The notes: a model not told the origin generated them from the letters alone. A DNA stretch of 64,000 nucleotides from Candidatus Moraniibacteriota bacterium (GCA_035390125.1 DAOOTD010000002.1:169908-233907); one strand, 5' to 3'. Counted from the first letter of the stretch, positions 8,620 through 48,464 are shown. Made by a program: numbers and translations.

Positions 8620-8706
8620 GGAGAGGTCGCATAGTGGTCGAGTGCACCACCTTGGAAAGGTGGCATACTGGAAACGGTATCGAGGGTTCGAATCCCTCTC
8701 TCTCCG
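8620..8706 (+). tRNA. tRNA-Ser (anticodon GGA), long variable arm, no encoded CCA
   Basis: Hand-folded. Acceptor GGAGAGG/TCTCTCC, anticodon stem CCACC/GGTGG with loop TTGGAAA, T-arm GAGGG-TTCGAAT-CCCTC. Confidence 0.85.
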
Positions 8707-8749
8707 CTAATTGTTTGCTTTTTTCTCTAAAGTTCTTTAGTCTGAAAAT

Positions 8750-10652: not shown

Positions 10653-11999
10653 ATGAAAAGAACACAAAAAAAGAAAAGCAAGAAGAAAGTGTTAAAGAAA
10701 CATATTATACGCAAGGCTAAAAAAATAAAATCAGGAAAACTTAAAAGATCCTTACGGAAAAAGGTATCTATAAAATTAAAGAAAAAACCTAAAAATGCTA
10801 AGAAAGTAAAATCAAAAACAAAATCAAAGAAAAAAGATATTCTGACTAAAAAGAAATCTAAAAATAAAAAATTAACAATAAAATCGAAAGAAATTCAGCC
10901 AGAAGGCATGGATGTAGTGGCTGAGTTGATTGCACGCGGAAAGCAGCGAGGATTTGTGACTGAAGATGAAATAATCCATCTTATCCCAGAAATCGAAGAA
11001 GAATTGGATGAATTGGAAAATTTATATGAAAAACTTGAAACTGCCGGCATAAAAGTTGTCGTTTCTGATGATATGTTGAAAATAGATACTGATAAAGAGG
11101 TCGAAGCTTATGAAAAGAGTAAAAAGGATAAAAATGCCGATATTATCCTGGGAGAAGGAGTTGAGGACAGTTCATCAGACTTGGTTCAAATGTATTTTCG
11201 TGAAATAGGACGGGTTCCACTTTTAAAATCAGAAGAAGAAATAAAATTGGCTAAAGCTAATGAAAAAGGAGATTTGGCGGCCAAACAAAAACTTACTGAG
11301 TCAAATTTACGTTTAGTTGTCAGTATTGCGAAAAAATATGTCGGACGTTCTCATAATTTGTCTTTGCTTGATCTTATTCAGGAAGGAAATATAGGTCTTT
11401 TCAGAGCAGTAGAAAAATTTGATTACAGAAAAGGATACAAATTTTCTACTTATGCCACCTGGTGGATACGCCAGGCAATTACACGCGCTTTAGCTGATCA
11501 GTCCAGAACCATACGCATACCGGTACATATGGTTGAAACTATAAATAAATATACCCAGATTACGCGCAGACTCGTCCAGGAATTAGGAAGGGAACCTTTA
11601 CCGGAGGAAATAGCTGCCGAAATGAATTTAGAAGTGGATAAAATCAGACATATCCAAAAAATTTCCCAGGAAACTGTTTCCTTGGAAACGTCAGTCGGTG
11701 ACAGTGATGATGACAGTGTGCTTGGAGATTTTATTGAAGACACTGAAACTGTAATGCCTCATCAGGTAGCTTCCAGAAAACTTTTAAAAAATCATGTGGT
11801 AGAAGTTTTAAGAGAACTTACTCCACGTGAACAAAAAATCTTGAAAATACGTTTCGGACTTGAAGATGGGGTAACCCACACCCTAGAAGAAGTTGGAAAA
11901 GAATTCGGAGTAACTCGAGAACGCATTCGTCAAATTGAAGCTAAAGCTCTAGATAAAATCAGGCAGCATAGGTCAATAGGAAAGCTTAAAGACTACTAA
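10653..11999 (+). CDS. rpoD: RNA polymerase sigma factor RpoD with a roughly 85-aa Lys-rich N-terminal extension
   Basis: Region 2 ([22 protein letters not shown]) and region 4 ([20 protein letters not shown]) motifs; dnaG-rpoD synteny. Confidence 0.9.
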
Positions 12000-12087: not shown

Positions 12088-12162
12088 TCCGGCGTAGCGC
12101 AACGGTAGCGCAGGGGACTGTTAATCCCTTGGTTGTAGGTTCGAATCCTACCGCCGGAGCCA
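12088..12162 (+). tRNA. tRNA-Asn (anticodon GTT) with encoded CCA
   Basis: Hand-folded. Acceptor TCCGGCG/CGCCGGA, anticodon loop CTGTTAA, T-arm TAGGTTCGAATCCTA, 3' GCCA. Confidence 0.9.
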
Positions 12163-13632
12163 TTCTTTAGTTTTGGCATATTCCATTATGCCATTAAAGG
12201 GAGCTTTTACCTCAAATGAAAGCTTTCCTGCATTTAAAGTAAGGTTCTGAAGTAAGAAACCCAATAGTTGGGTTTTTTCTTGTGGTTCAGAATTTTGGAA
12301 CAATTCTAATGCCCTTTGCGACAAGTCTAATACTTTATTTGCTGTAAGACTGAAGTCTCTATCAGCGGACGAATGTTCCTGAAGTTGTGTATTTAAGTTT
12401 TCTCTTTCTTGTGTGTATTCAATAGCCATTTTGTCATATTCGTCCGCAGTAATACGTCCATCAAGTCTGTCTCTATACATAACCTTTAACCTTGCATCTA
12501 TATTGCCTATTTTTCTTTGAATAGTTGCTTTATTTTTCTCATAATACACTTTTTCAGCATCATGAATAGTTCTTAGCTCATCTTTGAGCCTATCAAGGGC
12601 TTCTGGCTCCAATTTTAAACTCTGAAATAGGTCTTTAGTTTGATCCACTAATTCATCTTCTCTCAACCACTTTATTCCTTTATCAGGACAAGTCCCGTAA
12701 TAATTAGTGCAATGATAGTAAACATGCCCTTTCTGAAGTTCTGGCGTAATTGCTAATCCGCAATGTGAACATTTTATCAATCCTCTGAAAATATATGGAT
12801 TGTTTGTTCGTTTGAAATTTTGCCTATTATAGCCGTTTATAACTTCTTGGACTTTTTCAAATAAATATCTTGAAACGATAGGTTGATATTTATGCGGATA
12901 TAGCTTACCCTTAACTCTCATTACGCCGTAATAGAACGGGTTTCTTAAAATTGCATGAACTTGGCTTGTTGTCATCTTCATTCCGCTCCTACTTCTCAAG
13001 CCTCTGTCGTTCATTTCCTGTGCAAGCTTTTTCATTGAAAATTTACCCGTGGCATACAACTGAAACATTTTTAGGACTAGAAATTCTTTGTCCTTGTCTA
13101 TGATAATATGCTTTTTTTCATTTTCCAGTGTTATATTTTTATATCCCAGATAGGCTTGTCCAATCCATTCGCCATTCCTTAATTTCTGCTCGTAAGCTCT
13201 TTTTACATTGTCGCTAATTGCATCAGAATAATATTTCGCCAGACCTAAATTTATTCCAAAATGAAATTTTTCTGCTGCCGATATATTTGAAGAGATAACA
13301 AGGTTGTCTGAAACAAAATGTAATTCTATTTTATCTTGCATTGCTAAATCATATAAAAGTGGAACGCGTTTATCAAAAACATTTCGCGTAAATCTATCTA
13401 CTTTGTCAAAACAGACTACAATTTTATCTTTGCTTTTCTTTACTAAATCAATTGCCTTATCAAATTCGTCTCTTTTTTGTTTATAGGCACTTTCATCAAA
13501 GCTAAAGATTTCTAAAACTGCAAAACCTTTTGTTTTGCAGTATTCTTTAAGCCTATGAATTTGAGCTGGTAGAGAGTTTCCGGCGTCTTTTTGTTCTTCT
13601 GTTGAAACTCTAGCTAATATTATCGCTTTCAT
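12148..13632 (-). CDS. large serine recombinase (resolvase/invertase-type N-terminal domain + recombinase domain + Zn ribbon); start at MKAIIL (track ORF extends to 13677)
   Basis: ILARVSTEEQ...GNSLPAQ catalytic Ser region, and a Cys cluster CSHCG...CTNYYGTC. Confidence 0.8.
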   Translation of the reverse strand: MKAIILARVSTEEQKDAGNSLPAQIHRLKEYCKTKGFAVLEIFSFDESAYKQKRDEFDKAIDLVKKSKDKIVVCFDKVDRFTRNVFDKRVPLLYDLAMQDKIELHFVSDNLVISSNISAAEKFHFGINLGLAKYYSDAISDNVKRAYEQKLRNGEWIGQAYLGYKNITLENEKKHIIIDKDKEFLVLKMFQLYATGKFSMKKLAQEMNDRGLRSRSGMKMTTSQVHAILRNPFYYGVMRVKGKLYPHKYQPIVSRYLFEKVQEVINGYNRQNFKRTNNPYIFRGLIKCSHCGLAITPELQKGHVYYHCTNYYGTCPDKGIKWLREDELVDQTKDLFQSLKLEPEALDRLKDELRTIHDAEKVYYEKNKATIQRKIGNIDARLKVMYRDRLDGRITADEYDKMAIEYTQERENLNTQLQEHSSADRDFSLTANKVLDLSQRALELFQNSEPQEKTQLLGFLLQNLTLNAGKLSFEVKAPFNGIMEYAKTKEWLRR

Positions 13633-15320
13633 TTTACGAATGCGTTTTGGACTGTTTGCGAAATTTGCTGATACCAATCTTTTTCATTTTCAGTTTTCAA
13701 CGCAAGATTAGATAGTGAATTAAACAAATTTTTTAAATCATCTGCTTTCGGTTTAATTGCGGAGCTATGGGCGTTTTTTAATAAACATTTGAAGTCCTCT
13801 AAACTTAAAGGTATTATTTGTGATTTTCCGCCATAATATTCTATGTTGATGCGATACAAACCGTAGTAGTGAGCAATGGTAGCATTATTCAAATTAGGAG
13901 CTACAAATATTCCAAATACAGGTTTTGAATTGCTTTTTTTATATTGACCATAGTGTCTTGCTACAGGCTCTCCTTCCATTTCATATTGTTTTTGTCCTGA
14001 TGATAGAGTGACTTCAACAATTGCATCAAAATCTTTATATTTACAAACTATATCGGGTGTGTTGCCTGGAGCTGTATATAATGGCATACCATCGTCATCA
14101 ATTTTAAAGTTTCCTTGAATATCTCCGTCGTTCAACATTGTAAAAGCTCTCCAAATATTCCATTCAAAGAAAAGAGATGGATCTATATTTTCTCTATTTA
14201 CAATACCTGAAAAAACTTCAAGTATATCATTATATTCTTCATAATTTCGTAATTTACTTTTTTCATTTTCAATATATTTTTCAAGACTCTCTTTGATTAG
14301 GCTTTCATAGATATTTTTCAAGTCTTCCGTGTCCTTCTCTTTGAGTGCCGAAACACTAACTCTTGTATCTTTCTGTGTAATTTTAGAAATTATCAAGTCT
14401 TTATTATCTACAAGAAGCAATGGCTTGCTCGCATCAAACAAATTCGCTTCATAATCTTCTTCATCTTTATATGCAAATATATCCCTATCAATATTCTTTA
14501 GAATAAATTCAATATCATTTTTTCTTTCTTTGAGAATGTATACTTTTGATGTTTTTGGATTTAACGAAAACAGTCCGGTAGCACGAAGATACCTAATAGA
14601 GGCATCGGCATAATCAAGATGATTACTTCGTTTAGTTTTAACAAAATTATCTAAAGTTTGTTCCTTACTTTCCCTTATTGATAACTTTCCTTGCTCAATG
14701 TCTTCCTTGAATAATTCAGTCAGCTCTTTCTCAAATTGCAAGGCGATAAATTTTTTATAATTTATCTTTTTTGTTCGCAATAACTTTTTTTCTTCTCTGA
14801 AATTGATAATTTTATTTTTTACATTATTGTATTTAGCAAAATCTGTAAGTTGAATAACAAATAGCCCTATCTCATGCTTGCTTAAACCGTCTAATTCATA
14901 AATAAGTCTCATTAACTCAAGGTAGGGCTTTATTCTAAATGTGTTATTTTTATCTTTATGATAAGGCGAATGAAGCTGGAACTTCAATAGCTGTCTTAAA
15001 AATATCTCTTCCGGTCTGTTTCCATAAACATATTTTTTTCCAGCTTCAGTAAGCTTGATAACTGGCTTTAAGTCAATCAATCCAAGAGATTTAGGAGCTC
15101 TGTTTACTCTATCTCTAGCCTTAAAAGCGACATCTCCAGTTGCTGAACCCTCAAAAAAATCTTGTTTAGCTAGTTGTAAATAAAACTTTTTTTGAGTCTC
15201 TGAATTCCATTTCTGACCTTCAAAATTTTCTGATAAAAATTTTATCTCATCAACCAGTTTGTGTGGTGACCTAGGCGAGGTAACGAAAAATATTGTTTTT
15301 TTATCTGTTATGTGAGCCAT
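13629..15320 (-). CDS. putative type II restriction endonuclease (possibly AlwI-family-like; identity uncertain)
   Basis: 563-aa protein immediately downstream of a DNA methyltransferase in the same operon. C-terminal TPDIV..DAIVEVT..QK resembles a PD-(D/E)xK core. Confidence 0.4.
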   Translation of the reverse strand: MAHITDKKTIFFVTSPRSPHKLVDEIKFLSENFEGQKWNSETQKKFYLQLAKQDFFEGSATGDVAFKARDRVNRAPKSLGLIDLKPVIKLTEAGKKYVYGNRPEEIFLRQLLKFQLHSPYHKDKNNTFRIKPYLELMRLIYELDGLSKHEIGLFVIQLTDFAKYNNVKNKIINFREEKKLLRTKKINYKKFIALQFEKELTELFKEDIEQGKLSIRESKEQTLDNFVKTKRSNHLDYADASIRYLRATGLFSLNPKTSKVYILKERKNDIEFILKNIDRDIFAYKDEEDYEANLFDASKPLLLVDNKDLIISKITQKDTRVSVSALKEKDTEDLKNIYESLIKESLEKYIENEKSKLRNYEEYNDILEVFSGIVNRENIDPSLFFEWNIWRAFTMLNDGDIQGNFKIDDDGMPLYTAPGNTPDIVCKYKDFDAIVEVTLSSGQKQYEMEGEPVARHYGQYKKSNSKPVFGIFVAPNLNNATIAHYYGLYRINIEYYGGKSQIIPLSLEDFKCLLKNAHSSAIKPKADDLKNLFNSLSNLALKTENEKDWYQQISQTVQNAFVK

Positions 15321-15347
15321 AATTATTTTTTTCTTATCGTTTATTAT

Positions 15348-16139
15348 TTACCAAAATATTTTCTCGTTATCTGGAATAGAGGAATTTTTTTGAAGAATAT
15401 CTTTTTTAAATTTAATATATTCTTTAATTCTCTTTTCCGATATTTCAATAGACTTGTTTGAGATATCACAGCCTATAAAATTACAATTATGTTTGATTGA
15501 AGAAATTGCTGCAGAGCCACTGCCTAAAAATGGGTCACAGACAACAAAGTTTGGTGAAGTGCTGGCACTTAACATTATGTCAAATAATTCAACCGGTTTC
15601 TGCGTAGGATACTTTGCTTGATGAACCCTCTTAATTCTCCAAACATCTGGAAATGAGCGGCTCTTTATCTTACGGTTGTTTTTATTTGTTGCAAAAATAA
15701 TAAATTCGTGTCGCCTTCTGAAATAATGTCCCATTCCTAAATTGACCTTATCCCAGGAAATAATATTTTTCACATCAAATAGTTCTCTTACTATTGGACC
15801 AAGCGAAAGAAGGGAGTAGGAATCAAACATTATATATAAATGACCTGAACTTTTCAGTGCTTTTTTGCACAATAGCAAAAAATTTCTATAATTTTCTTCT
15901 GTATCTTTGAATTCCTCAAACCATTTTCCATTTACTGTTCCTTTTTCGGCATATTTTCCAACAATTCTTCCGTTCCCCAAGCTTAAATGATTATTCATTC
16001 CTGAATAAGCTGGATCTGTTACAATAATGTCTATACTTTTTTCTGGCTGACTTTCAAGAAATTTTAATACATCATCGTGAACGATTTTTATTGTATTTTT
16101 TCCTTTATTATATTTGACCTCAAAAGATAATTTTCTCAT
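15348..16139 (-). CDS. beta-class N6-adenine/N4-cytosine DNA methyltransferase (N6_N4_Mtase family); start at MRKLSF (track ORF extends to 16160)
   Basis: Motif IV TDPAY (DPPY-like) at the N-terminus, YPTQKP, and motif I DPFLGSGSAA at the C-terminus; this motif order defines the beta class. Confidence 0.8.
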   Translation of the reverse strand: MRKLSFEVKYNKGKNTIKIVHDDVLKFLESQPEKSIDIIVTDPAYSGMNNHLSLGNGRIVGKYAEKGTVNGKWFEEFKDTEENYRNFLLLCKKALKSSGHLYIMFDSYSLLSLGPIVRELFDVKNIISWDKVNLGMGHYFRRRHEFIIFATNKNNRKIKSRSFPDVWRIKRVHQAKYPTQKPVELFDIMLSASTSPNFVVCDPFLGSGSAAISSIKHNCNFIGCDISNKSIEISEKRIKEYIKFKKDILQKNSSIPDNEKIFW

Positions 16140-16143
16140 AGAT

Positions 16144-16320
16144 TTATTTTGTTGATGCATTTTCTACAAAACTTTGAAACTCGTTCTTTTTAATACGAAA
16201 CTCTTTACCGAATTTATAAGCTTTAATTTTTCCAGCTTTAATGTAGCGATAAATAGTCATTATATTTACCCTTAAAATATCAGCTAATTCTTGAGCTGTG
16301 TAAAATTCTTTTTCTTGCAT
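16144..16320 (-). CDS. excisionase-family (HTH_17/MerR-like) DNA-binding protein, 58 aa; not in the ORF track because it is under 60 aa
   Basis: Hand translation gives MQEKEFYTAQELADILRVNIMTIYRYIKAGKIKAYKFGKEFRIKKNEFQSFVENASTK, which matches the HTH_17 consensus (sELAeiLgVsrrTIYRwikaGklpayKiGr.wRI). Its stop lies 4 nt before the methyltransferase ATG. Confidence 0.6.
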   Translation of the reverse strand: MQEKEFYTAQELADILRVNIMTIYRYIKAGKIKAYKFGKEFRIKKNEFQSFVENASTK

Positions 16321-16357
16321 ATGTTTATTTTTTAATTATAAGATACTTTACTTTTCT

Positions 16358-16558
16358 TTACAAGAAACAGTCCTTACGATCATTGCAACCACCACACGCA
16401 TCGCAATAATCATACTTTCCTATTACAGTAATCTCGTCCTCCAAGCCTCTTTTCTTTAGCTCCTTTCTTATTTCTTCAGCAGTTCGTCCTTGAAAAATTT
16501 CATCAAGCAACTCATCAGTGAGTTCAACTTTTTTCTTTTTTAAATTTTTTTTACTCAT
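16358..16558 (-). CDS. small CxxC-motif protein (YCDACGGCNDRKDC)
   Basis: 66-aa ORF between the Rep-like gene and the HTH gene, with a C-terminal 4-Cys cluster. Confidence 0.35.
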   Translation of the reverse strand: MSKKNLKKKKVELTDELLDEIFQGRTAEEIRKELKKRGLEDEITVIGKYDYCDACGGCNDRKDCFL

Positions 16559-16576
16559 TTATTTAGAATTAAATAA

Positions 16577-17722
16577 TTAACTCGTAATTTGCTCTTTCTT
16601 AAAGACATCAAATTTTTTTAATCCTTCTTCAATATCCTTCAAATAAAGCTCTGGCGACAATGCGTTTGTATTTAATGCTATTGCATTTAATTCTTTCAAG
16701 TGCTTGTTTACATTATTCCAAGAGCCTTTTCCGAATTTGTCCTCTATAATCTGACGAAACAATTCTGCACCCTCGCTCTTGCAAAAATCTTTGATAGCAT
16801 ACAGAGCTACTGCTTTTGTAGGTCTTCCATTTTGATTTGCGATATAATCAGAAATTTCCATAAGCTCATCTTTCTTGCTTTTGTTTTGCTGAAAGAGATG
16901 CAGGTTTCTTTCTTGGACAAGCGTATTCCAATAATCAAGCAAAACTTTTTGGCAAACATCTTTTTTAAAAATATCTCTGAAGTTTGGATTTTTGCCAAAT
17001 CCTATTTTTTCCAAAACCGTGTCCATTTTTCTTTTTTGCGAAAGCCTAACCTCCATTTTAAGAATTTCAATGTCAGTCTTTCTTCGCCACTCGTTTATCT
17101 GACAAAACAAACTTTTTTGATTTCCTTTCATATCGTGGTCAATTGACCTTTTTTCGTCTTTTCCCATATCGGCGATTTTATCGTAGAAAACTAGGGAGTG
17201 AGATTTTGAATAATACTGAAGTGAATGACCGCCGTTGCGAAAATCCGTCTTTGTCAGATCCAACCTCTTTGTTAGCTGTATTTTGGAAAGCTCTTTGATT
17301 GCCATTGTAGCTGTTATGTAGCCGTTTAACTCAATGTTTTTTGAGGCGTGAAATCCGGACACAGTAGCTTCCGCTAAATTATCTCGCATAATATAGACAC
17401 CTTTTTTGATTAGTTTTTCCTGTAATTTGAGGATAACTTCTTCAAAATCACTTTCTTTAATTTCGTCTAGATTATTCTGAAATAGTAACTTTGGAACTGA
17501 AAATTCAACTCTTAAACCGATATTTATTCCCATTCTTGAAGGTCGTCTATAGAGTGTCATTCTTGGATAATATTCCCATTTTGATTCTTCCTTTGAAGGA
17601 TTGTTAACGGCTTTGCCATATCCGGCATCAGATAAAAAGTCTTTCGCGTTAGGAAAAAACATTTCTGGCGTCCAAATATCAAACTTATCAAGTGGAAAAT
17701 TCAAGATTACTGTGTCTAGCAT
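16577..17722 (-). CDS. putative rolling-circle replication initiation protein (gpII/Phage_CRI or Rep_trans-like)
   Basis: N-terminus MLDTVILNFPLDKFDIW resembles the MIDxLVLRLPF start of filamentous-phage gpII-type Rep proteins. Context is a mobile element. Confidence 0.35.
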   Translation of the reverse strand: MLDTVILNFPLDKFDIWTPEMFFPNAKDFLSDAGYGKAVNNPSKEESKWEYYPRMTLYRRPSRMGINIGLRVEFSVPKLLFQNNLDEIKESDFEEVILKLQEKLIKKGVYIMRDNLAEATVSGFHASKNIELNGYITATMAIKELSKIQLTKRLDLTKTDFRNGGHSLQYYSKSHSLVFYDKIADMGKDEKRSIDHDMKGNQKSLFCQINEWRRKTDIEILKMEVRLSQKRKMDTVLEKIGFGKNPNFRDIFKKDVCQKVLLDYWNTLVQERNLHLFQQNKSKKDELMEISDYIANQNGRPTKAVALYAIKDFCKSEGAELFRQIIEDKFGKGSWNNVNKHLKELNAIALNTNALSPELYLKDIEEGLKKFDVFKKEQITS

Positions 17723-17907
17723 AATTTTGCGTTATTTTCATTATTCGTCTTATTTGAGCTATTTTCCTTTTGTTGTTCATTTATTCGTTTGTCAATTCTA
17801 AAAAGCAAGTCAAAAAATCCCACAAAATTGTGCTTTGCTTCAAATACTTCCTTGTTAGAAAGCGTCTTTTTGCTTAATTTCTCATAGAATTCCTTGTCAG
17901 ATAACAT
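17716..17907 (-). CDS. small hypothetical protein, first gene of the island operon
   Basis: 63-aa ORF overlapping the Rep start by 7 nt. Confidence 0.25.
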   Translation of the reverse strand: MLSDKEFYEKLSKKTLSNKEVFEAKHNFVGFFDLLFRIDKRINEQQKENSSNKTNNENNAKLC

Positions 17908-17910
17908 AAA

Positions 17911-17932
17911 ACCAGCAACTTTAAATTGCTGG
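17911..17932. promoter_or_regulatory. 7-bp perfect inverted repeat CCAGCAA-N7-TTGCTGG just upstream of the island operon (operator or candidate nick/origin hairpin)
   Basis: Seen directly in sequence at 17912-17918 and 17926-17932. Confidence 0.3.
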
Positions 17933-18222
17933 CTTCTGAAGACAAAAAAAGAGACAACAGAGGCTAATCAACTTAAAGTTGAATGCTTTGTTATCTCAAA
18001 GGCTGTATGCAGGTTAAGATTGCTGTAGTGCCCTAGGGCGACTTATAGTATTAACGTTCCAAGTCTTATATTGAGCTAAATCAAAACTTTATTAACTTTT
18101 TAAGGCTTATATATACAATATCATACAAAAATAGACTTTGTCAAGGTGTAGTTATTTTGTTATAAATTTAATTTTTAAGCCAAAAAATGGCTTAAATAAG
18201 CTGTCGCGCAGCTGAACATTCA

Positions 18223-18438
18223 TTACTTTTTCTTACTTTCAGTAATTTTCTTTAGAAATTTTTTTCTTTCGCTTTTGTTTAAAAAAACGCTTTCAAAGAA
18301 GTATTGCATTTGAACTAAATTATAGTCTAAATTTACACTTTTCAGCTCTTTGTTGATGCTTTTAACTACGAATTTTTCCAGCTTGGCGTTCTCTCTTCTC
18401 TGAATTCTTGGCAGTAATAGTTTCTTCGTAAACCTCAT
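18223..18438 (-). CDS. hypothetical small basic protein
   Basis: 71-aa ORF, Lys/Arg-rich. Confidence 0.25.
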   Translation of the reverse strand: MRFTKKLLLPRIQRRENAKLEKFVVKSINKELKSVNLDYNLVQMQYFFESVFLNKSERKKFLKKITESKKK

Positions 18439-18503
18439 ATAATTTGTGATAAATTTTTAATTTTTATATACTTTATAAAAGAAACTCATAATATTTTAAT
18501 AAA

Positions 18504-19427
18504 ATGGACTTATCTGAAATTGAAAAAAGAAATGCTTCTGTAAATAAATACCTAGAAGGTATTAGCGATGAGGAGCTTAGAAAAAAAGGTGATGAAGAAT
18601 ATGCCAAGGCGGAAAAGGATTTTAAGGAATTAAAAGAAGCTCTTGCGGAAGGAAAATGTAGTTTCTGCGGAAATTCTATTTCTCATTTTTCTGAAAAGAA
18701 ACCGTGTTTTCATTGGCTTTTAAAACCGAATGGCTTTAAGAAAAGACACTTTCCCTTGCTATATAAAAAATATAGTTTTCGTAGAATGGAGGCATATTTA
18801 CGCTGGGTGGCAAATACTGATATACCCCTTAAAAATATAAACGATTTAGTTGAAGAAAAAACATCTTCAAAAAAAATTGAGCTAACAGTGGTCTATAAAG
18901 ATTTAGAATGGTCATTTTCCTGTTCTAGGTCTGATTATCAAGGACATCAAGACAAACGAGAAGGAAAAATGCCTCACTATCATTTTCAGATGAAGAAAGC
19001 TGGCAATGTAATAATAAACTATGCCGGCTTCCATATTCCTTTTCACGATGAAGATTTTTTTTCATTTGCATTGAGTGAAGGAAAAATTCCCAGACTAGGC
19101 TATAAACATATTCACGGTGCGGGAATGCAAGAACTTCTTGATAATTTTTCTCCAGAAGAAATTCTTGAGCAAATGGTAAAGGCTGACGATGAAGAAAATG
19201 CTCAATTTCATACCTCTACGCTTGTCGAGGCTGATCCCGGAACTACAATATCAGGTTCAGTCATCGCTGATTTAGTAGAGGAGCATAAACGAACAGGAAT
19301 TCCAATGGCACGACTTATTCAAAAATTACCAAACATTAAAGCGACTAGCTATATTACTCCCGGTCCCGGCGTGCCAGAATTAGCAAAAAGAACTCCAAGA
19401 CGTAAAAAAATGCAAGAAGACAAATAG
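18504..19427 (+). CDS. hypothetical Cys/His-rich protein (possible Zn-binding; CSFCGN...CFHW, HYHFQ, HIPFHDED)
   Basis: 307-aa ORF in island cargo; no recognisable family. Confidence 0.4.
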   Translation: MDLSEIEKRNASVNKYLEGISDEELRKKGDEEYAKAEKDFKELKEALAEGKCSFCGNSISHFSEKKPCFHWLLKPNGFKKRHFPLLYKKYSFRRMEAYLRWVANTDIPLKNINDLVEEKTSSKKIELTVVYKDLEWSFSCSRSDYQGHQDKREGKMPHYHFQMKKAGNVIINYAGFHIPFHDEDFFSFALSEGKIPRLGYKHIHGAGMQELLDNFSPEEILEQMVKADDEENAQFHTSTLVEADPGTTISGSVIADLVEEHKRTGIPMARLIQKLPNIKATSYITPGPGVPELAKRTPRRKKMQEDK

Positions 19428-19631
19428 CATTCCTCTGATTTGTCCTGTGATGTCCTGTTATAGCTCTGCAAATGCTGGCAACAATTCCATTTCTTGCATA
19501 AGTCTTCCTAAATTCAAGTTTCTGAACATATTAGCTAGCGGGAGCAACGATTTTCAGGACTTATTTAAAGCCCTGTTTTTTATATTTGTTCAATTCATAA
19601 TTCTAAATTTTTATAATTAGCGAATTATATA

Positions 19632-20003: not shown

Positions 20004-20045
20004 ACCCGCCGGCAGAAAATCTGCTTTGGTGGGTTTTCTGTTTTT
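20004..20045 (+). terminator. hairpin + T-run terminator (CCCGCCGGCAG...CTGCTTTGGTGGG TTTTCTGTTTTT)
   Basis: Imperfect GC-rich stem followed by a T-tract. The 3' arm and T-tract are the start of the 52-bp repeat. Confidence 0.45.
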
Positions 20046-20073
20046 ATATCAAACTTAAATTAAATTCTTCCAA
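20022..20073 (+). repeat. copy 1 of a 52-bp direct repeat (TGCTTTGGTGGGTTTTCTGTTTTTATATCAAACTTAAATTAAATTCTTCCAA)
   Basis: 51 of 52 nt identical to 20761-20812. Confidence 0.8.
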
Positions 20074-20178
20074 AATTTTCCAAAACTTTACTCACTTAAA
20101 AGTGCTCAATTTTTAGTATGGGCATCATATTTTAATGGCTTATTTAAGCCTTTTTTTATTTAATTTATTAATTGCTTG

Positions 20179-20742: not shown

Positions 20743-20785
20743 CCCACCAGCAAGGAAACTTGCTTTGGTGGGTTTTCTGTTTTTA
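20743..20785 (+). terminator. rho-independent terminator (CCCACCAGCAAG-GAAA-CTTGCTTTGGTGGG followed by TTTTCTGTTTTT)
   Basis: 12-bp stem and T-run; overlaps repeat copy 2. Confidence 0.6.
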
Positions 20786-20812
20786 TATCCAACTTAAATT
20801 AAATTCTTCCAA
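20761..20812 (+). repeat. copy 2 of the 52-bp direct repeat
   Basis: 51 of 52 nt identical to 20022-20073. Confidence 0.8.
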
Positions 20813-20954
20813 TAATTCACCAAATTATCTATAATTAAAAGTTATAATTTTTTTACTAAATTGAACCAAATAAAACACACTTTTTATGGGGTTATTTTTT
20901 ATACCAGAGTAGGATGATAGAATTTATGTTATAATAAACCTAGTAATAATTTTT

Positions 20955-23720: not shown

Positions 23721-24419
23721 ATGAAAAAAGAAAAAACTAAAAAAACAAAAACACATACAATAATAATTTCTGACCTTCACCTGGGATCAAAAGTGAGCCA
23801 ACCGGAAAAAACTTTGGCAATGCTGGAAAATTATTCTTTCCAAAAGCTTATACTCTTGGGAGATGTTTTTGACAACATGGATTTCCGCAATCTTTCTAAA
23901 GAATGCTGGAATCTGCTTACTTATATTGGAAAAATATCTAAAAATAAGAAAGTCAGGTGGGTTATTGGAAACCATGATGAGGGATTGGTAAATATTTTTA
24001 AATCTCTAATGGATGCCAAAATATATGAAACATACGTTTGGCATTATAAGCAGAAAAAATATCTTGCCATACATGGACATCAATTCGACCGTTTTTTAGT
24101 TAATAATGCTATGATTAGTTATTTGGCGAATAAAATTTATAATTTTATACAAAGAATTGATTCTAATGAAAAAAAATTTAGTCATTATCTTAAGAAAAAA
24201 AGCAAAGGTTGGCTAAGACTTTCTGAAAAAGTAGCCCGTTCTGCAATTATTTATGGTAAAGAAAATGGAGCCGATTTTGTTTTCTGTGGACATACACATA
24301 AGTCTATTCAAAGAAAAAATCATAAAATAAAATATTTTAATTCGGGCTGTTGGGATGACACTCCATGTAGTTATATAACTATTAACGATGGAGGTATAAA
24401 AATTCAAGAATATATATGA
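23721..24419 (+). CDS. calcineurin-like metallophosphoesterase
   Basis: Motifs SDLHLG, LGDVFD, GNHDE and GHTH. Confidence 0.65.
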   Translation: MKKEKTKKTKTHTIIISDLHLGSKVSQPEKTLAMLENYSFQKLILLGDVFDNMDFRNLSKECWNLLTYIGKISKNKKVRWVIGNHDEGLVNIFKSLMDAKIYETYVWHYKQKKYLAIHGHQFDRFLVNNAMISYLANKIYNFIQRIDSNEKKFSHYLKKKSKGWLRLSEKVARSAIIYGKENGADFVFCGHTHKSIQRKNHKIKYFNSGCWDDTPCSYITINDGGIKIQEYI

Positions 24420-48337: not shown

Positions 48338-48382
48338 AAAAATTATTCAAACATAAAATCCCTATTTAAATTAGGGATTTTG

Positions 48383-48464
48383 TGCCCGAAGAGAGACTCG
48401 AACTCTCATGGCTTGCGCCACACGATTTTGAGTCGTGCGTGTATACCAATTTCACCACTCGGGC
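48383..48464 (-). tRNA. tRNA-Leu (anticodon CAA), long variable arm
   Basis: Hand-folded on the minus strand. Acceptor GCCCGAG/TTCGGGC, anticodon stem CACGA/TCGTG with loop CTCAAAA, T-arm GAGAG-TTCGAGT-CTCTC. Confidence 0.85.

Follow-up and report, generated by a model that had tools for sequence, protein, structure and literature searches.

A 64,000-nucleotide stretch of DNA (the window) from Candidatus Moraniibacteriota bacterium (GCA_035390125.1; DAOOTD010000002.1:169908-233907) carries a large serine recombinase (LSR) gene whose 3' end overlaps, on the opposite strand, the 3' end of a tRNA-Asn(GTT) gene (Table 1). The original prediction, made from the sequence alone, had placed at positions 12088 to 17932 an integrative element inserted into this tRNA, with the last four LSR codons lying in the tRNA 3' half. 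ARAGORN confirmed the tRNA gene and its plus-strand orientation, and the LSR overlap was found to comprise 15 nt (12148-12162). The interpretation was essentially right and is supported by the evidence below; the right boundary of the element and its contribution to the tRNA had to be corrected.

The tRNA-Asn junction and the attachment sites

The LSR gene starts with an ATG at 13632 and stops with a TAG at 12150-12148, and its final codons (AAA GAA TGG CTC CGG CGG TAG) encode K E W L R R and the stop. The last 15 nt of the gene are the reverse complement of the tRNA 3' end (CTACCGCCGGAGCCA, CCA included), and the Trp codon TGG is the antisense of the CCA encoded in the tRNA. Sequence comparison divided the tRNA gene into host DNA (positions 1 to ~71) and element DNA (positions ~72-76; A-G-C-C-A), and the final two LSR codons and the stop of the integrated form come from the host tRNA. 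The element had been predicted to supply or abut the tRNA 3' end; it does supply it, but its contribution is much smaller, being limited to the last few bases (~72-76).

The encoded CCA sets this gene apart from the other tRNA genes of the window, tRNA-Ser and tRNA-Leu (8620-8707 and 48382-48464), neither of which encodes a CCA. The unoccupied tRNA-Asn genes of the closest relatives also lack it and end in ...GGAGC|N. The CCA of the tRNA-Asn thus belongs to the element. By these comparisons the last bases of the gene are foreign, and the CCA is evidence independent of the comparison of the attachment (att) sites.

All three profiles that had been suggested as a check matched the 12148-13632 product, namely Resolvase (PF00239; 9.4e-21; residues 18-171 of the open reading frame [ORF] with a TTG start), Recombinase (PF07508; 4.5e-17), and Zn_ribbon_recom (PF13408; 1.9e-7). 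Among 35 homologs, R8, S10, R54, D79, R80, and R83 of the catalytic domain and C288, C291, and C308 of the zinc ribbon were invariant. Searches against PDB sequences matched the TP901-1 integrase N-terminal domain (3bvp) and the A118 integrase C-terminal domain (4kis/6dnw), the similarity to solved integrases being weak but significant (E, about 1e-6). An AlphaFold2 (AF2) model of a homolog (P0005) contained long paired helices at residues 343-447. Judged from its domain order and coiled-coil insert, the LSR has the architecture of a large serine integrase, and it would presumably catalyze an attP x attB reaction. No Phage_integrase domain was detected with Pfam in the nine ORFs between 12148 and 19427. 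A host resembling members of the Candidate Phyla Radiation had been guessed correctly, as an identical LSR protein is annotated in a Candidatus Moranbacteria metagenome-assembled genome (MAG).

The element spans ~12158-19542 (7,385 bp). Features shared with a circular relative, contig L088, run to 18438, and the element therefore extends past the previously proposed right end at 17932; the att site at its far end, attR, has its core at 19541-19545. Two more ORFs, of 71 aa (18223-18438) and 307 aa (18504-19427), are thereby taken in. This site was located by scanning the minus strand with a regular expression for the core followed by an L088-like arm. One match (at 19545) lay just past the backbone shared with L088; eight other matches, from 21.2 kb onward, resembled nothing and were set aside. 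The P arm of the window (cgttGCTCCCGCTAGCTAATATGTTCAGAAACTTGAATTTAGGAAG) closely matches that of the L088 attP (aatgGCTCCCGATAGTTTATATGTTCAGAAGGCTTGAATTAAAGAA). To the right of the attR core lies AACGATTTTCAGGACTTATTTAAAGCCCTGTTTTTT, a tRNA trailer without CCA, followed by an imperfect hairpin (CAGGAC-N9-GCCCTG) and a run of six T residues, which we read as the native tRNA terminator and which a strict scan did not flag.

The only sequence common to attL and attR is GGAGC. The B arm of attL contains the T-loop of the tRNA (TTCGAAC) at +13..+19 from the center of the site, and the P arm of attR contains a mimic of the T-loop (TTCAGAA(A)C, minus strand) at +17..+24. Joining the arms gives an attP junction of ...CTAAAGAATGGCTCCCGCTAGCTAATATG... 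and an attB consisting of the 3' 25 nt of the tRNA-Asn followed by AACGATTTT..., with the junction ...AATCCTACCGCCGGAGCAACGATTTTCAGG... The crossover is thereby placed at about tRNA positions 71-73, and the dinucleotide probably lies at about 71-72; a tandem copy in a related locus (L074) limits the core to positions 71-74, and the center of a palindromic attP in another (L060) falls between positions 71 and 72.

Two other candidates for the far end were rejected. A GAGCCA at 23795, past MurJ, was dismissed because MurJ would fall inside the element and because no similarity to the P arm was present. A long direct repeat of the tRNA 3' end, the signature of tyrosine integrases, was ruled out, as no second copy of the tRNA 3' 25-mer within 3 mismatches and no relevant repeat family were found in the window.

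Two further features were observed next to the junction. A terminator-like hairpin (AAACCCAATAGTTGGGTTTTTT followed by a T-run) lies inside the LSR coding region in the tRNA sense and coincides with a conserved EKTQLLGFLLQN motif; it could be a surrogate terminator for the tRNA transcript, halting read-through into the antisense LSR gene. An inverted repeat (TGGCATA-N6-TATGCCA; 12172-12191, plus strand) lies within the P' arm and the LSR coding sequence. Short inverted repeats also occur 8-30 nt past the tRNA 3' end in several clades, at equivalent positions in L088 and L013 and as other palindromes in L021, L025, and L064. The repeat in P' may belong to the att site, serve as a signal for tRNA processing, or have arisen by chance.

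Recurrence across the family and the C-terminal tail

The LSR had 3343 homologs, of which the best 120 were 49-68% identical to it and had C termini that were nearly all antisense-tRNA-like (...WLRR, ...LLRG, or ...LRGQDSNLRPID). With one genome per GTDB species, 396 matches were obtained, mostly in MAGs of Patescibacteria and Dependentiae/Babeliales, and 78 related loci were fetched from these and surveyed on the basis of ORF and tRNA calls. An antisense tRNA called by ARAGORN was situated exactly at the LSR 3' end in 54 loci (Asn, 23; Gln, 11; Asp, 8; Glu, 6; Arg, 4; Tyr, 1; His, 1). Eleven more had a tRNA 3' half there that was truncated at the end of the contig or interrupted by an anticodon-loop group I intron, giving 65 of 78 loci with the antisense-tRNA layout, while the LSR tail was of a non-tRNA type in 9. 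The reading phase was constant, the CCA, where encoded, always corresponding to the Trp codon. Because it recurs in this way at related loci, the overlap of LSR and tRNA is not due to chance.

Group I introns in patescibacterial tRNA-Asn genes have already been described (PMC13011429). We detected them with Rfam (RF00028) in L006 (4552-4802) and L059 (10592-10864), and the same intron-split 3' half follows just after the LSR stop in L026, L027, L052, L069, and L083. Proteins with "...PIDYTYPxVS" tails and no ARAGORN tRNA were considered as free attP forms and rejected, since they correspond to intron-split tRNA-Asn genes: the intron causes ARAGORN to miss the tRNA, and gene callers extend the recombinase. 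A common annotation artifact is explained in a related manner, in that "Recombinase" proteins ending in ...LRGQDSNLRPID are the result of read-through into an antisense tRNA.

An attP or attP-like junction was represented in three relatives. P0005, which is 67% identical to the LSR of the window, ends in ...KEWLPIVYMFRRLELKK... rather than ...KEWLRR. It is encoded on L088, whose 27-nt terminal overlap allows circularization to 6,347 bp, upon which two partial ORFs close into one of 545 aa. L088 shares with the window the LSR, the 63-aa ORF, the noncoding segment at 18083-18145, and the 71-aa ORF. On the evidence of its terminal overlap, L088 is either a circular form or a collapsed tandem, and the P-P' junction is present in both cases. 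Two loci, L060 at a tRNA-Asn (period, 9,318 bp) and L074 at a tRNA-Asp (period, 5,653 bp), have tandem copies in the chromosome. The 3' end of the second LSR is in both cases identical over at least 60 nt up to ...GCTCCC (L060) or ...TGGCGG (L074) and then diverges into a P arm, leaving an internal attP-like junction. These tandems may have arisen by integration of replication dimers. L050 was rejected as a tandem array because its LSR is a frameshifted pseudogene.

The far junction was identified in nine further tRNA-Asn loci within the 10-kb flank, giving element sizes of 3.2-11 kb, shared cores of 5-10 nt, and a minimal core of GCTCC (LSR sense). Positions in the arms were counted from GCT|CC, the center of the palindromic L060 attP. 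All B arms had the real T-loop at +13..+19. Comparison of 11 P arms showed TT[CT]AGAAC at +17..+24, clearly in 8 and in degenerate form in L035, L013, and L088. This puts GAAC 5 bp further out in P arms (+21..+24) than in B arms (+16..+19), while an inner GGA[CT] motif had the same position in most B/P pairs and was not shifted. Rutherford et al. (2013; PMC3783163) place the zinc-ribbon-domain motif of serine integrases at bp 11-19 of attB and at bp 16-24 of attP; the shift observed here corresponds to this canonical geometry. The P arms of Asp-, Glu-, and Arg-type elements contain a literal CTTCGAAC.

In L021 (~425-470), L025 (~2062-2105), and L064 (~2260-2300), an inverted copy of the core (GGGAGC) was observed ~35-40 nt past GCTCCC in the P arm. 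Such arms, read in the tRNA sense, could pair like an acceptor stem around the T-loop mimic and form a mini tRNA-like unit, which the P arm of the window does not do.

Joined across the core, the LSR ORF of the window comprises 519 aa and ends in KEWL-PLANMFRNLNLGRLMQEMELLPAFAEL, a tail of ~27 aa. The segment encoding this tail, cut off from the LSR gene by the integration, is still an open frame of 27 codons. A tail is also present in L088 and is open for 28-33 codons in 9 of 10 reconstructed elements, its length being kept even between pairs with 49-59% nucleotide identity, with a modest excess of synonymous change. With about one stop per 14 codons expected by chance at ~33% G+C, the constancy of length across several lineages speaks for a genuine coding tail, which may have a function. 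The first ~8 codons of the tail (LPxxDxFRT) overlap the P arm, so that part of the conservation acts at the DNA level. As the crossover lies inside the LSR ORF, integration exchanges the length-conserved tail of ~30 aa for a short antisense-tRNA peptide of 2 to about 20 residues. In the AF2 model of the free-form P0005 LSR, the tail is a single helix with a pLDDT of 45-68, a range from which we draw no conclusion on its packing. Free-form proteins reconstructed from the relatives were not found in the protein collection, with the sole and expected exception of the L060 tandem copy.

Mobility, gene content, and competing explanations

In the nearest relative recovered (L089; rpoD, 78-87% identical), dnaG, rpoD, and tRNA-Asn are followed by a terminator with no LSR within 10 kb. 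The tRNA ends in ...CCTACCGCCGGAGC|ATATGC, and a variable stretch, a C39 peptidase gene, and MurJ follow as in the window. Several other relatives have rpoD and tRNA-Asn without an LSR. The comparison of the dnaG-rpoD-tRNA-Asn-murJ neighborhood that had been proposed thus yielded an empty variant and defined attL and attR, but the contigs with identical rpoD or LSR were all occupied. In L098 a more distant LSR overlaps the same tRNA. Distant LSRs (33-37% identical) were observed by rpoD-linked tRNA-Asn genes in L098 (tRNA at 11144-11219) and L156 (13117-13192); one of them overlaps the tRNA by 12 nt, and the aligned part of the other stops ~250 nt from it.

Past attR, two other repeats were noted between the core and the C39 peptidase gene: a 101-nt direct repeat with 80% identity (20014-20114 and 20753-20853) and a pair of terminator-like hairpins (19550-19590 and 20129-20169), with each of the repeats upstream of a small ORF.

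Table 1. Coordinates of features at the tRNA-Asn junction, within the element, and at its far end
Feature	Position	Strand	Basis
tRNA-Asn(GTT), hybrid gene	12088..12162	+	ARAGORN
attL B arm (attB-type half-site): T-arm and acceptor 3' strand	12133..12157	+	Arm comparison, 10 loci
Large serine recombinase, integrated form, 494 aa (...KEWLRR*)	12148..13632	-	Pfam PF00239, PF07508, PF13408
attL core GGAGC, tRNA positions 70-74	12156..12160	+	attL/attR comparison, window and 9 other loci
P' arm, element derived; encodes LSR ...MEYAKTKEWL and forms the new tRNA 3' trailer	12158..12185	+	Near-identical to P' side of L088 attP
Terminator-like hairpin and T-run	12254..12278	+	Consensus scan
AlwI-family type II restriction endonuclease (cargo)	13629..15320	-	Pfam RE_AlwI PF09491, 1.9e-61
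N6/N4 DNA methyltransferase (cargo)	15348..16160	-	Pfam N6_N4_Mtase PF01555, 3.1e-26
58-aa HTH_17 protein, excisionase-like	16144..16320	-	Pfam HTH_17, 4.8e-14; excisionase PHROG families
66-aa ORF, C-terminal Cys cluster	16358..16558	-	No Pfam or PHROG match
381-aa Rep_trans-like rolling-circle replication initiator (backbone)	16577..17722	-	Best structural matches, plasmid Rep_trans proteins
63-aa ORF, conserved in element family	17716..17907	-	tblastn, 16 related loci including circular L088
Conserved noncoding leader	17908..18145	-	Consensus scan; similar to L088 3528-3768
71-aa ORF, common to circular L088 and L011	18223..18438	-	tblastx, tblastn
307-aa ORF (cargo), between shared backbone and attR	18504..19427	+	No family match, no homolog in related loci
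Coding segment of excised-form LSR tail (PLANMFRNLNLGRLMQEMELLPAFAEL*), joined at core to give the 519-aa ORF	19458..19541	-	
attR P arm (attP-type half-site)	19518..19542	+	Close to L088 attP over about 40 nt
attR core GGAGC	19541..19545	+	Sequence comparison
B' arm, displaced original tRNA trailer (AACG..., no CCA)	19546..19585	+	Layout as in unoccupied tRNA-Asn of L089 and L093

The restriction-modification, helix-turn-helix, and Rep-like genes had been predicted to lie upstream of the LSR in one minus-strand run, which Pfam and the structural matches of the Rep corroborated. From the LSR upstream, the genes overlap or are separated by gaps of at most 37 nt, the LSR start overlapping the stop of the endonuclease gene (ATGA), and all eight minus-strand ORFs are intact and tightly packed. 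On the basis of their families and adjacency, the AlwI-type endonuclease and the methyltransferase form a type II restriction-modification pair. The HTH_17 protein, with homologs in 29 of 79 related loci, is a candidate directionality factor or regulator. The 381-aa protein was found to have the Rep_trans fold; Y180 and D181/K182/D185 are invariant in its family and are candidates for the catalytic Tyr and metal-binding residues. The leader contains a promoter-like site (18144-18115), a segment conserved in L088 (18083-18145), and a hairpin directly upstream of the first ORF of the operon (17936-17908), and is a candidate promoter and/or rolling-circle replication origin. The endonuclease, the 66-aa ORF, and the 307-aa ORF had no homologs in the 79 related loci and are therefore regarded as cargo of the window copy. 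No match was obtained for the 66-, 63-, 71-, and 307-aa ORFs in PHROGs, Pfam, or PDB sequence searches.

Sequence comparison established the junctions, core, and arm geometry, the empty site of relatives, the circular relative, the tandems elsewhere, and the recurrence in the family. On this basis we consider it very probable that a small integrated replicon of the rolling-circle type (7,385 bp; an integrative plasmid or a satellite-like element) entered the tRNA-Asn gene by LSR-mediated recombination of attP with attB. The attB would consist of the T-arm and acceptor 3' strand of the tRNA (B), a core within GGAGC, and the nonconserved trailer (B'). The attP would span the 3' end of the LSR's own ORF, with P' corresponding to the last ~8 codons up to the Leu codon CTC, followed by a P arm bearing the T-loop mimic 5 bp further from the center, as for a zinc-ribbon-bound attP half-site. 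Strand exchange at about positions 71-72 would preserve an intact tRNA, since A72-G73-CCA and a new trailer come from the element. The same exchange would cut the LSR ORF, so that the circular form encodes 519 aa with a helical tail of ~27 aa and the integrated form encodes 494 aa, its last two codons (both Arg) and its stop being read from the acceptor/T-stem on the antisense strand of the tRNA.

Several points weigh against integration by this route or against continued mobility. The exact crossover dinucleotide was deduced rather than observed. The arm comparison revealed neither a convincing symmetry of P' with P nor conservation of the B' trailer between hosts, which is atypical for characterized LSR sites. 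The variable region past attR has no counterpart in L089, and L088 could be a collapsed tandem array instead of a free circle. Searches for direct traces of mobility of the window copy were negative: the island was present in all 12-14 contigs with identical rpoD or LSR, and no match was obtained for the exact reconstructed attB 30-mer in the metagenome contig collection, for the attP junction in viral contigs, or for the reconstructed 519-aa protein in the protein collection. These negative results would fit a fixed relic that no longer moves, in which the overlap is the fossil of an old insertion and the LSR has another role (e.g., multimer resolution) or is decaying, as the frameshifted LSR of L050 illustrates for a relative. 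We consider such a relic rather unlikely, given the intact and tightly packed minus-strand ORFs, the presence of both attL and attR with a P arm still close to that of the circular relative, the open frame of the separated tail, and the restriction-modification cargo, which occurs only in the window copy and therefore implies recent turnover. The window copy can probably still excise.

The other alternatives concern how the overlap arose and what the replicon is. Convergent genes often overlap in reduced genomes, and with only 15 nt involved, gene packing in a small genome might have brought an island up against a tRNA that is entirely host DNA. The recurrence of the overlap in 65 of 78 relatives at seven tRNA species in constant phase (TGG for CCA where encoded), an att core inside the tRNA, a CCA (GAGCCATTCTTT end) foreign to the tRNA genes of the host, and tandem copies that diverge exactly at the core make this explanation so improbable as to be almost negligible. 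A filamentous (inovirus-like) prophage of the phiRSM kind, in place of a plasmid-like replicon, is improbable to a lesser degree. Some Rep homologs match Phage_CRI (inovirus G2P N-terminal domain), the element has many small ORFs, phiRSM phages combine a serine recombinase with a tRNA 3' end in reverse orientation (PMC3816273), and there are reports of inoviruses from the Candidate Phyla Radiation (PMC6813254). However, no virion genes (pI/Zot or major coat) were found with Pfam or PHROGs, sequence methods that distant homologs could escape; the best structural matches of the Rep are plasmid Rep_trans proteins; the recombinase is large (494 aa; PF07508 and PF13408) and not of the small serine type; and family members are as small as 3.2 kb.

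A further reading concerns the position of attP within the integrase ORF, which may be a built-in switch and not an accident of compaction. The circle would make a full-length enzyme with the conserved ~30-aa helix, and integration would remove the helix and leave an altered prophage-state enzyme. Together with T-arm recognition, this would define an undescribed and very widespread clade (Patescibacteria, Dependentiae, and other uncultured lineages) of self-modifying, tRNA-targeting LSRs. We put this forward tentatively and hold it to be doubtful. If it were true, the integrated enzyme might, for example, be incompetent for integration, dependent on a directionality factor, or unstable, and the integrated LSR gene would also be transcribed head-on against the tRNA gene.

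Two observations on the related loci are recorded here. Record titles place some family members far from the main lineages, i.e., L011 (Bathyarchaeia MAG), P0110 (Methanoculleus), L012, L015, and L029 ("Bdellovibrionales"), and many "Gammaproteobacteria" binchicken MAGs; these distant titles, archaea included, may reflect misbinned small contigs or real spread. The flank of L006, a Parcubacteria MAG, contains a LOOT RNA (964-1087; Rfam RF03000; 96.5 bits).

Comparison with known systems

For the insertion of large DNA segments, large serine integrases are the principal tools. The family described here offers a series, produced by nature, of related integrases that have switched among targets which are all conserved and universally present, and this is useful for understanding and engineering specificity. 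Its att anatomy is clear: the T-loop serves as the attB-type motif, a mimic displaced by 5 bp serves as the attP-type motif, the core is 5 nt long, the crossover falls within the integrase gene, and at least seven tRNA species are targets. Little is known of mobile elements and genetic tools in Patescibacteria and Dependentiae, and the family provides for them a first class of integrative elements that is well delimited. It is also a possible case of integration-dependent remodeling of a serine integrase.

The reaction is recognizably that of an LSR, and the mechanism is therefore not categorically new. The enzyme shares with the A118/LI, TP901-1, Bxb1, phiC31, and SPbeta SprA integrases the three-domain architecture with a coiled-coil insert and the use of short att sites with a small shared core. 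As in LSRs of phages and integrative and conjugative elements, the outer DNA motif is ~5 bp nearer the center in attB than in attP (PMC3783163), and a small accessory protein is expected for excision. Unlike characterized LSRs, which target protein-coding or intergenic sequences, this family targets tRNA 3' ends with the T-arm as a half-site, has its crossover inside the integrase ORF, and uses a nonconserved trailer as B'. The novelty lies in the tRNA target, the T-arm mimicry, and the crossover within the ORF, across a large family from uncultured lineages.

The view in the original prediction that a serine recombinase at a tRNA is unusual agrees with published surveys, yet the arrangement recurs in most of the related loci. 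Mageeney et al. (2020) described serine integrases as "not known for targeting tRNA genes," predicted such cases in 14 of 297, and called for proof (PMC7192596); no mention of tRNA targets appears in the LSR survey by Durrant et al. (2022; PMC10083194). We found no report of an LSR with attP in its own ORF, or of this LSR family, in a literature search that left most subscription journals outside its scope and is not proof of absence.

The nearest experimentally studied analog is phiRSM of Ralstonia, a rolling-circle filamentous phage with a 13-nt core that equals a tRNA-Ser 3' end (PMC3816273). Like the element of the window, it combines a rolling-circle replicon with a serine-family recombinase (ORF14) and a core that is the 3' end of a tRNA in reverse orientation, beginning with TGG (CCA). 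Its enzyme is of resolvase/invertase size and its core lies between two genes, whereas the window has an LSR of 494/519 aa, a 5-nt core, and an attP in the ORF. Tyrosine-recombinase islands of the Islander type (PMC4383910) resemble the element in having the integrase gene at the island edge by the tRNA, a tRNA restored by element DNA, and a displaced fragment at the far end. They differ in the enzyme and in duplicating ~15-50 nt of the tRNA, in contrast to the ~5 nt shared here with no detectable direct repeat. An attP in the integrase gene, a tRNA target, and an encoded protein changed by integration are also features of the archaeal SSV1-type integrases (PMC8371274), and phiRSS0 ORF13 has an attP within an element gene and an integration-dependent truncation (PMC3816273). 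The SSV and phiRSS0 systems use a tyrosine recombinase or XerCD, and SSV splits its integrase into two large parts; in the element of the window, by contrast, only the C-terminal ~30 aa would be exchanged, with the catalytic and DNA-binding domains left intact.

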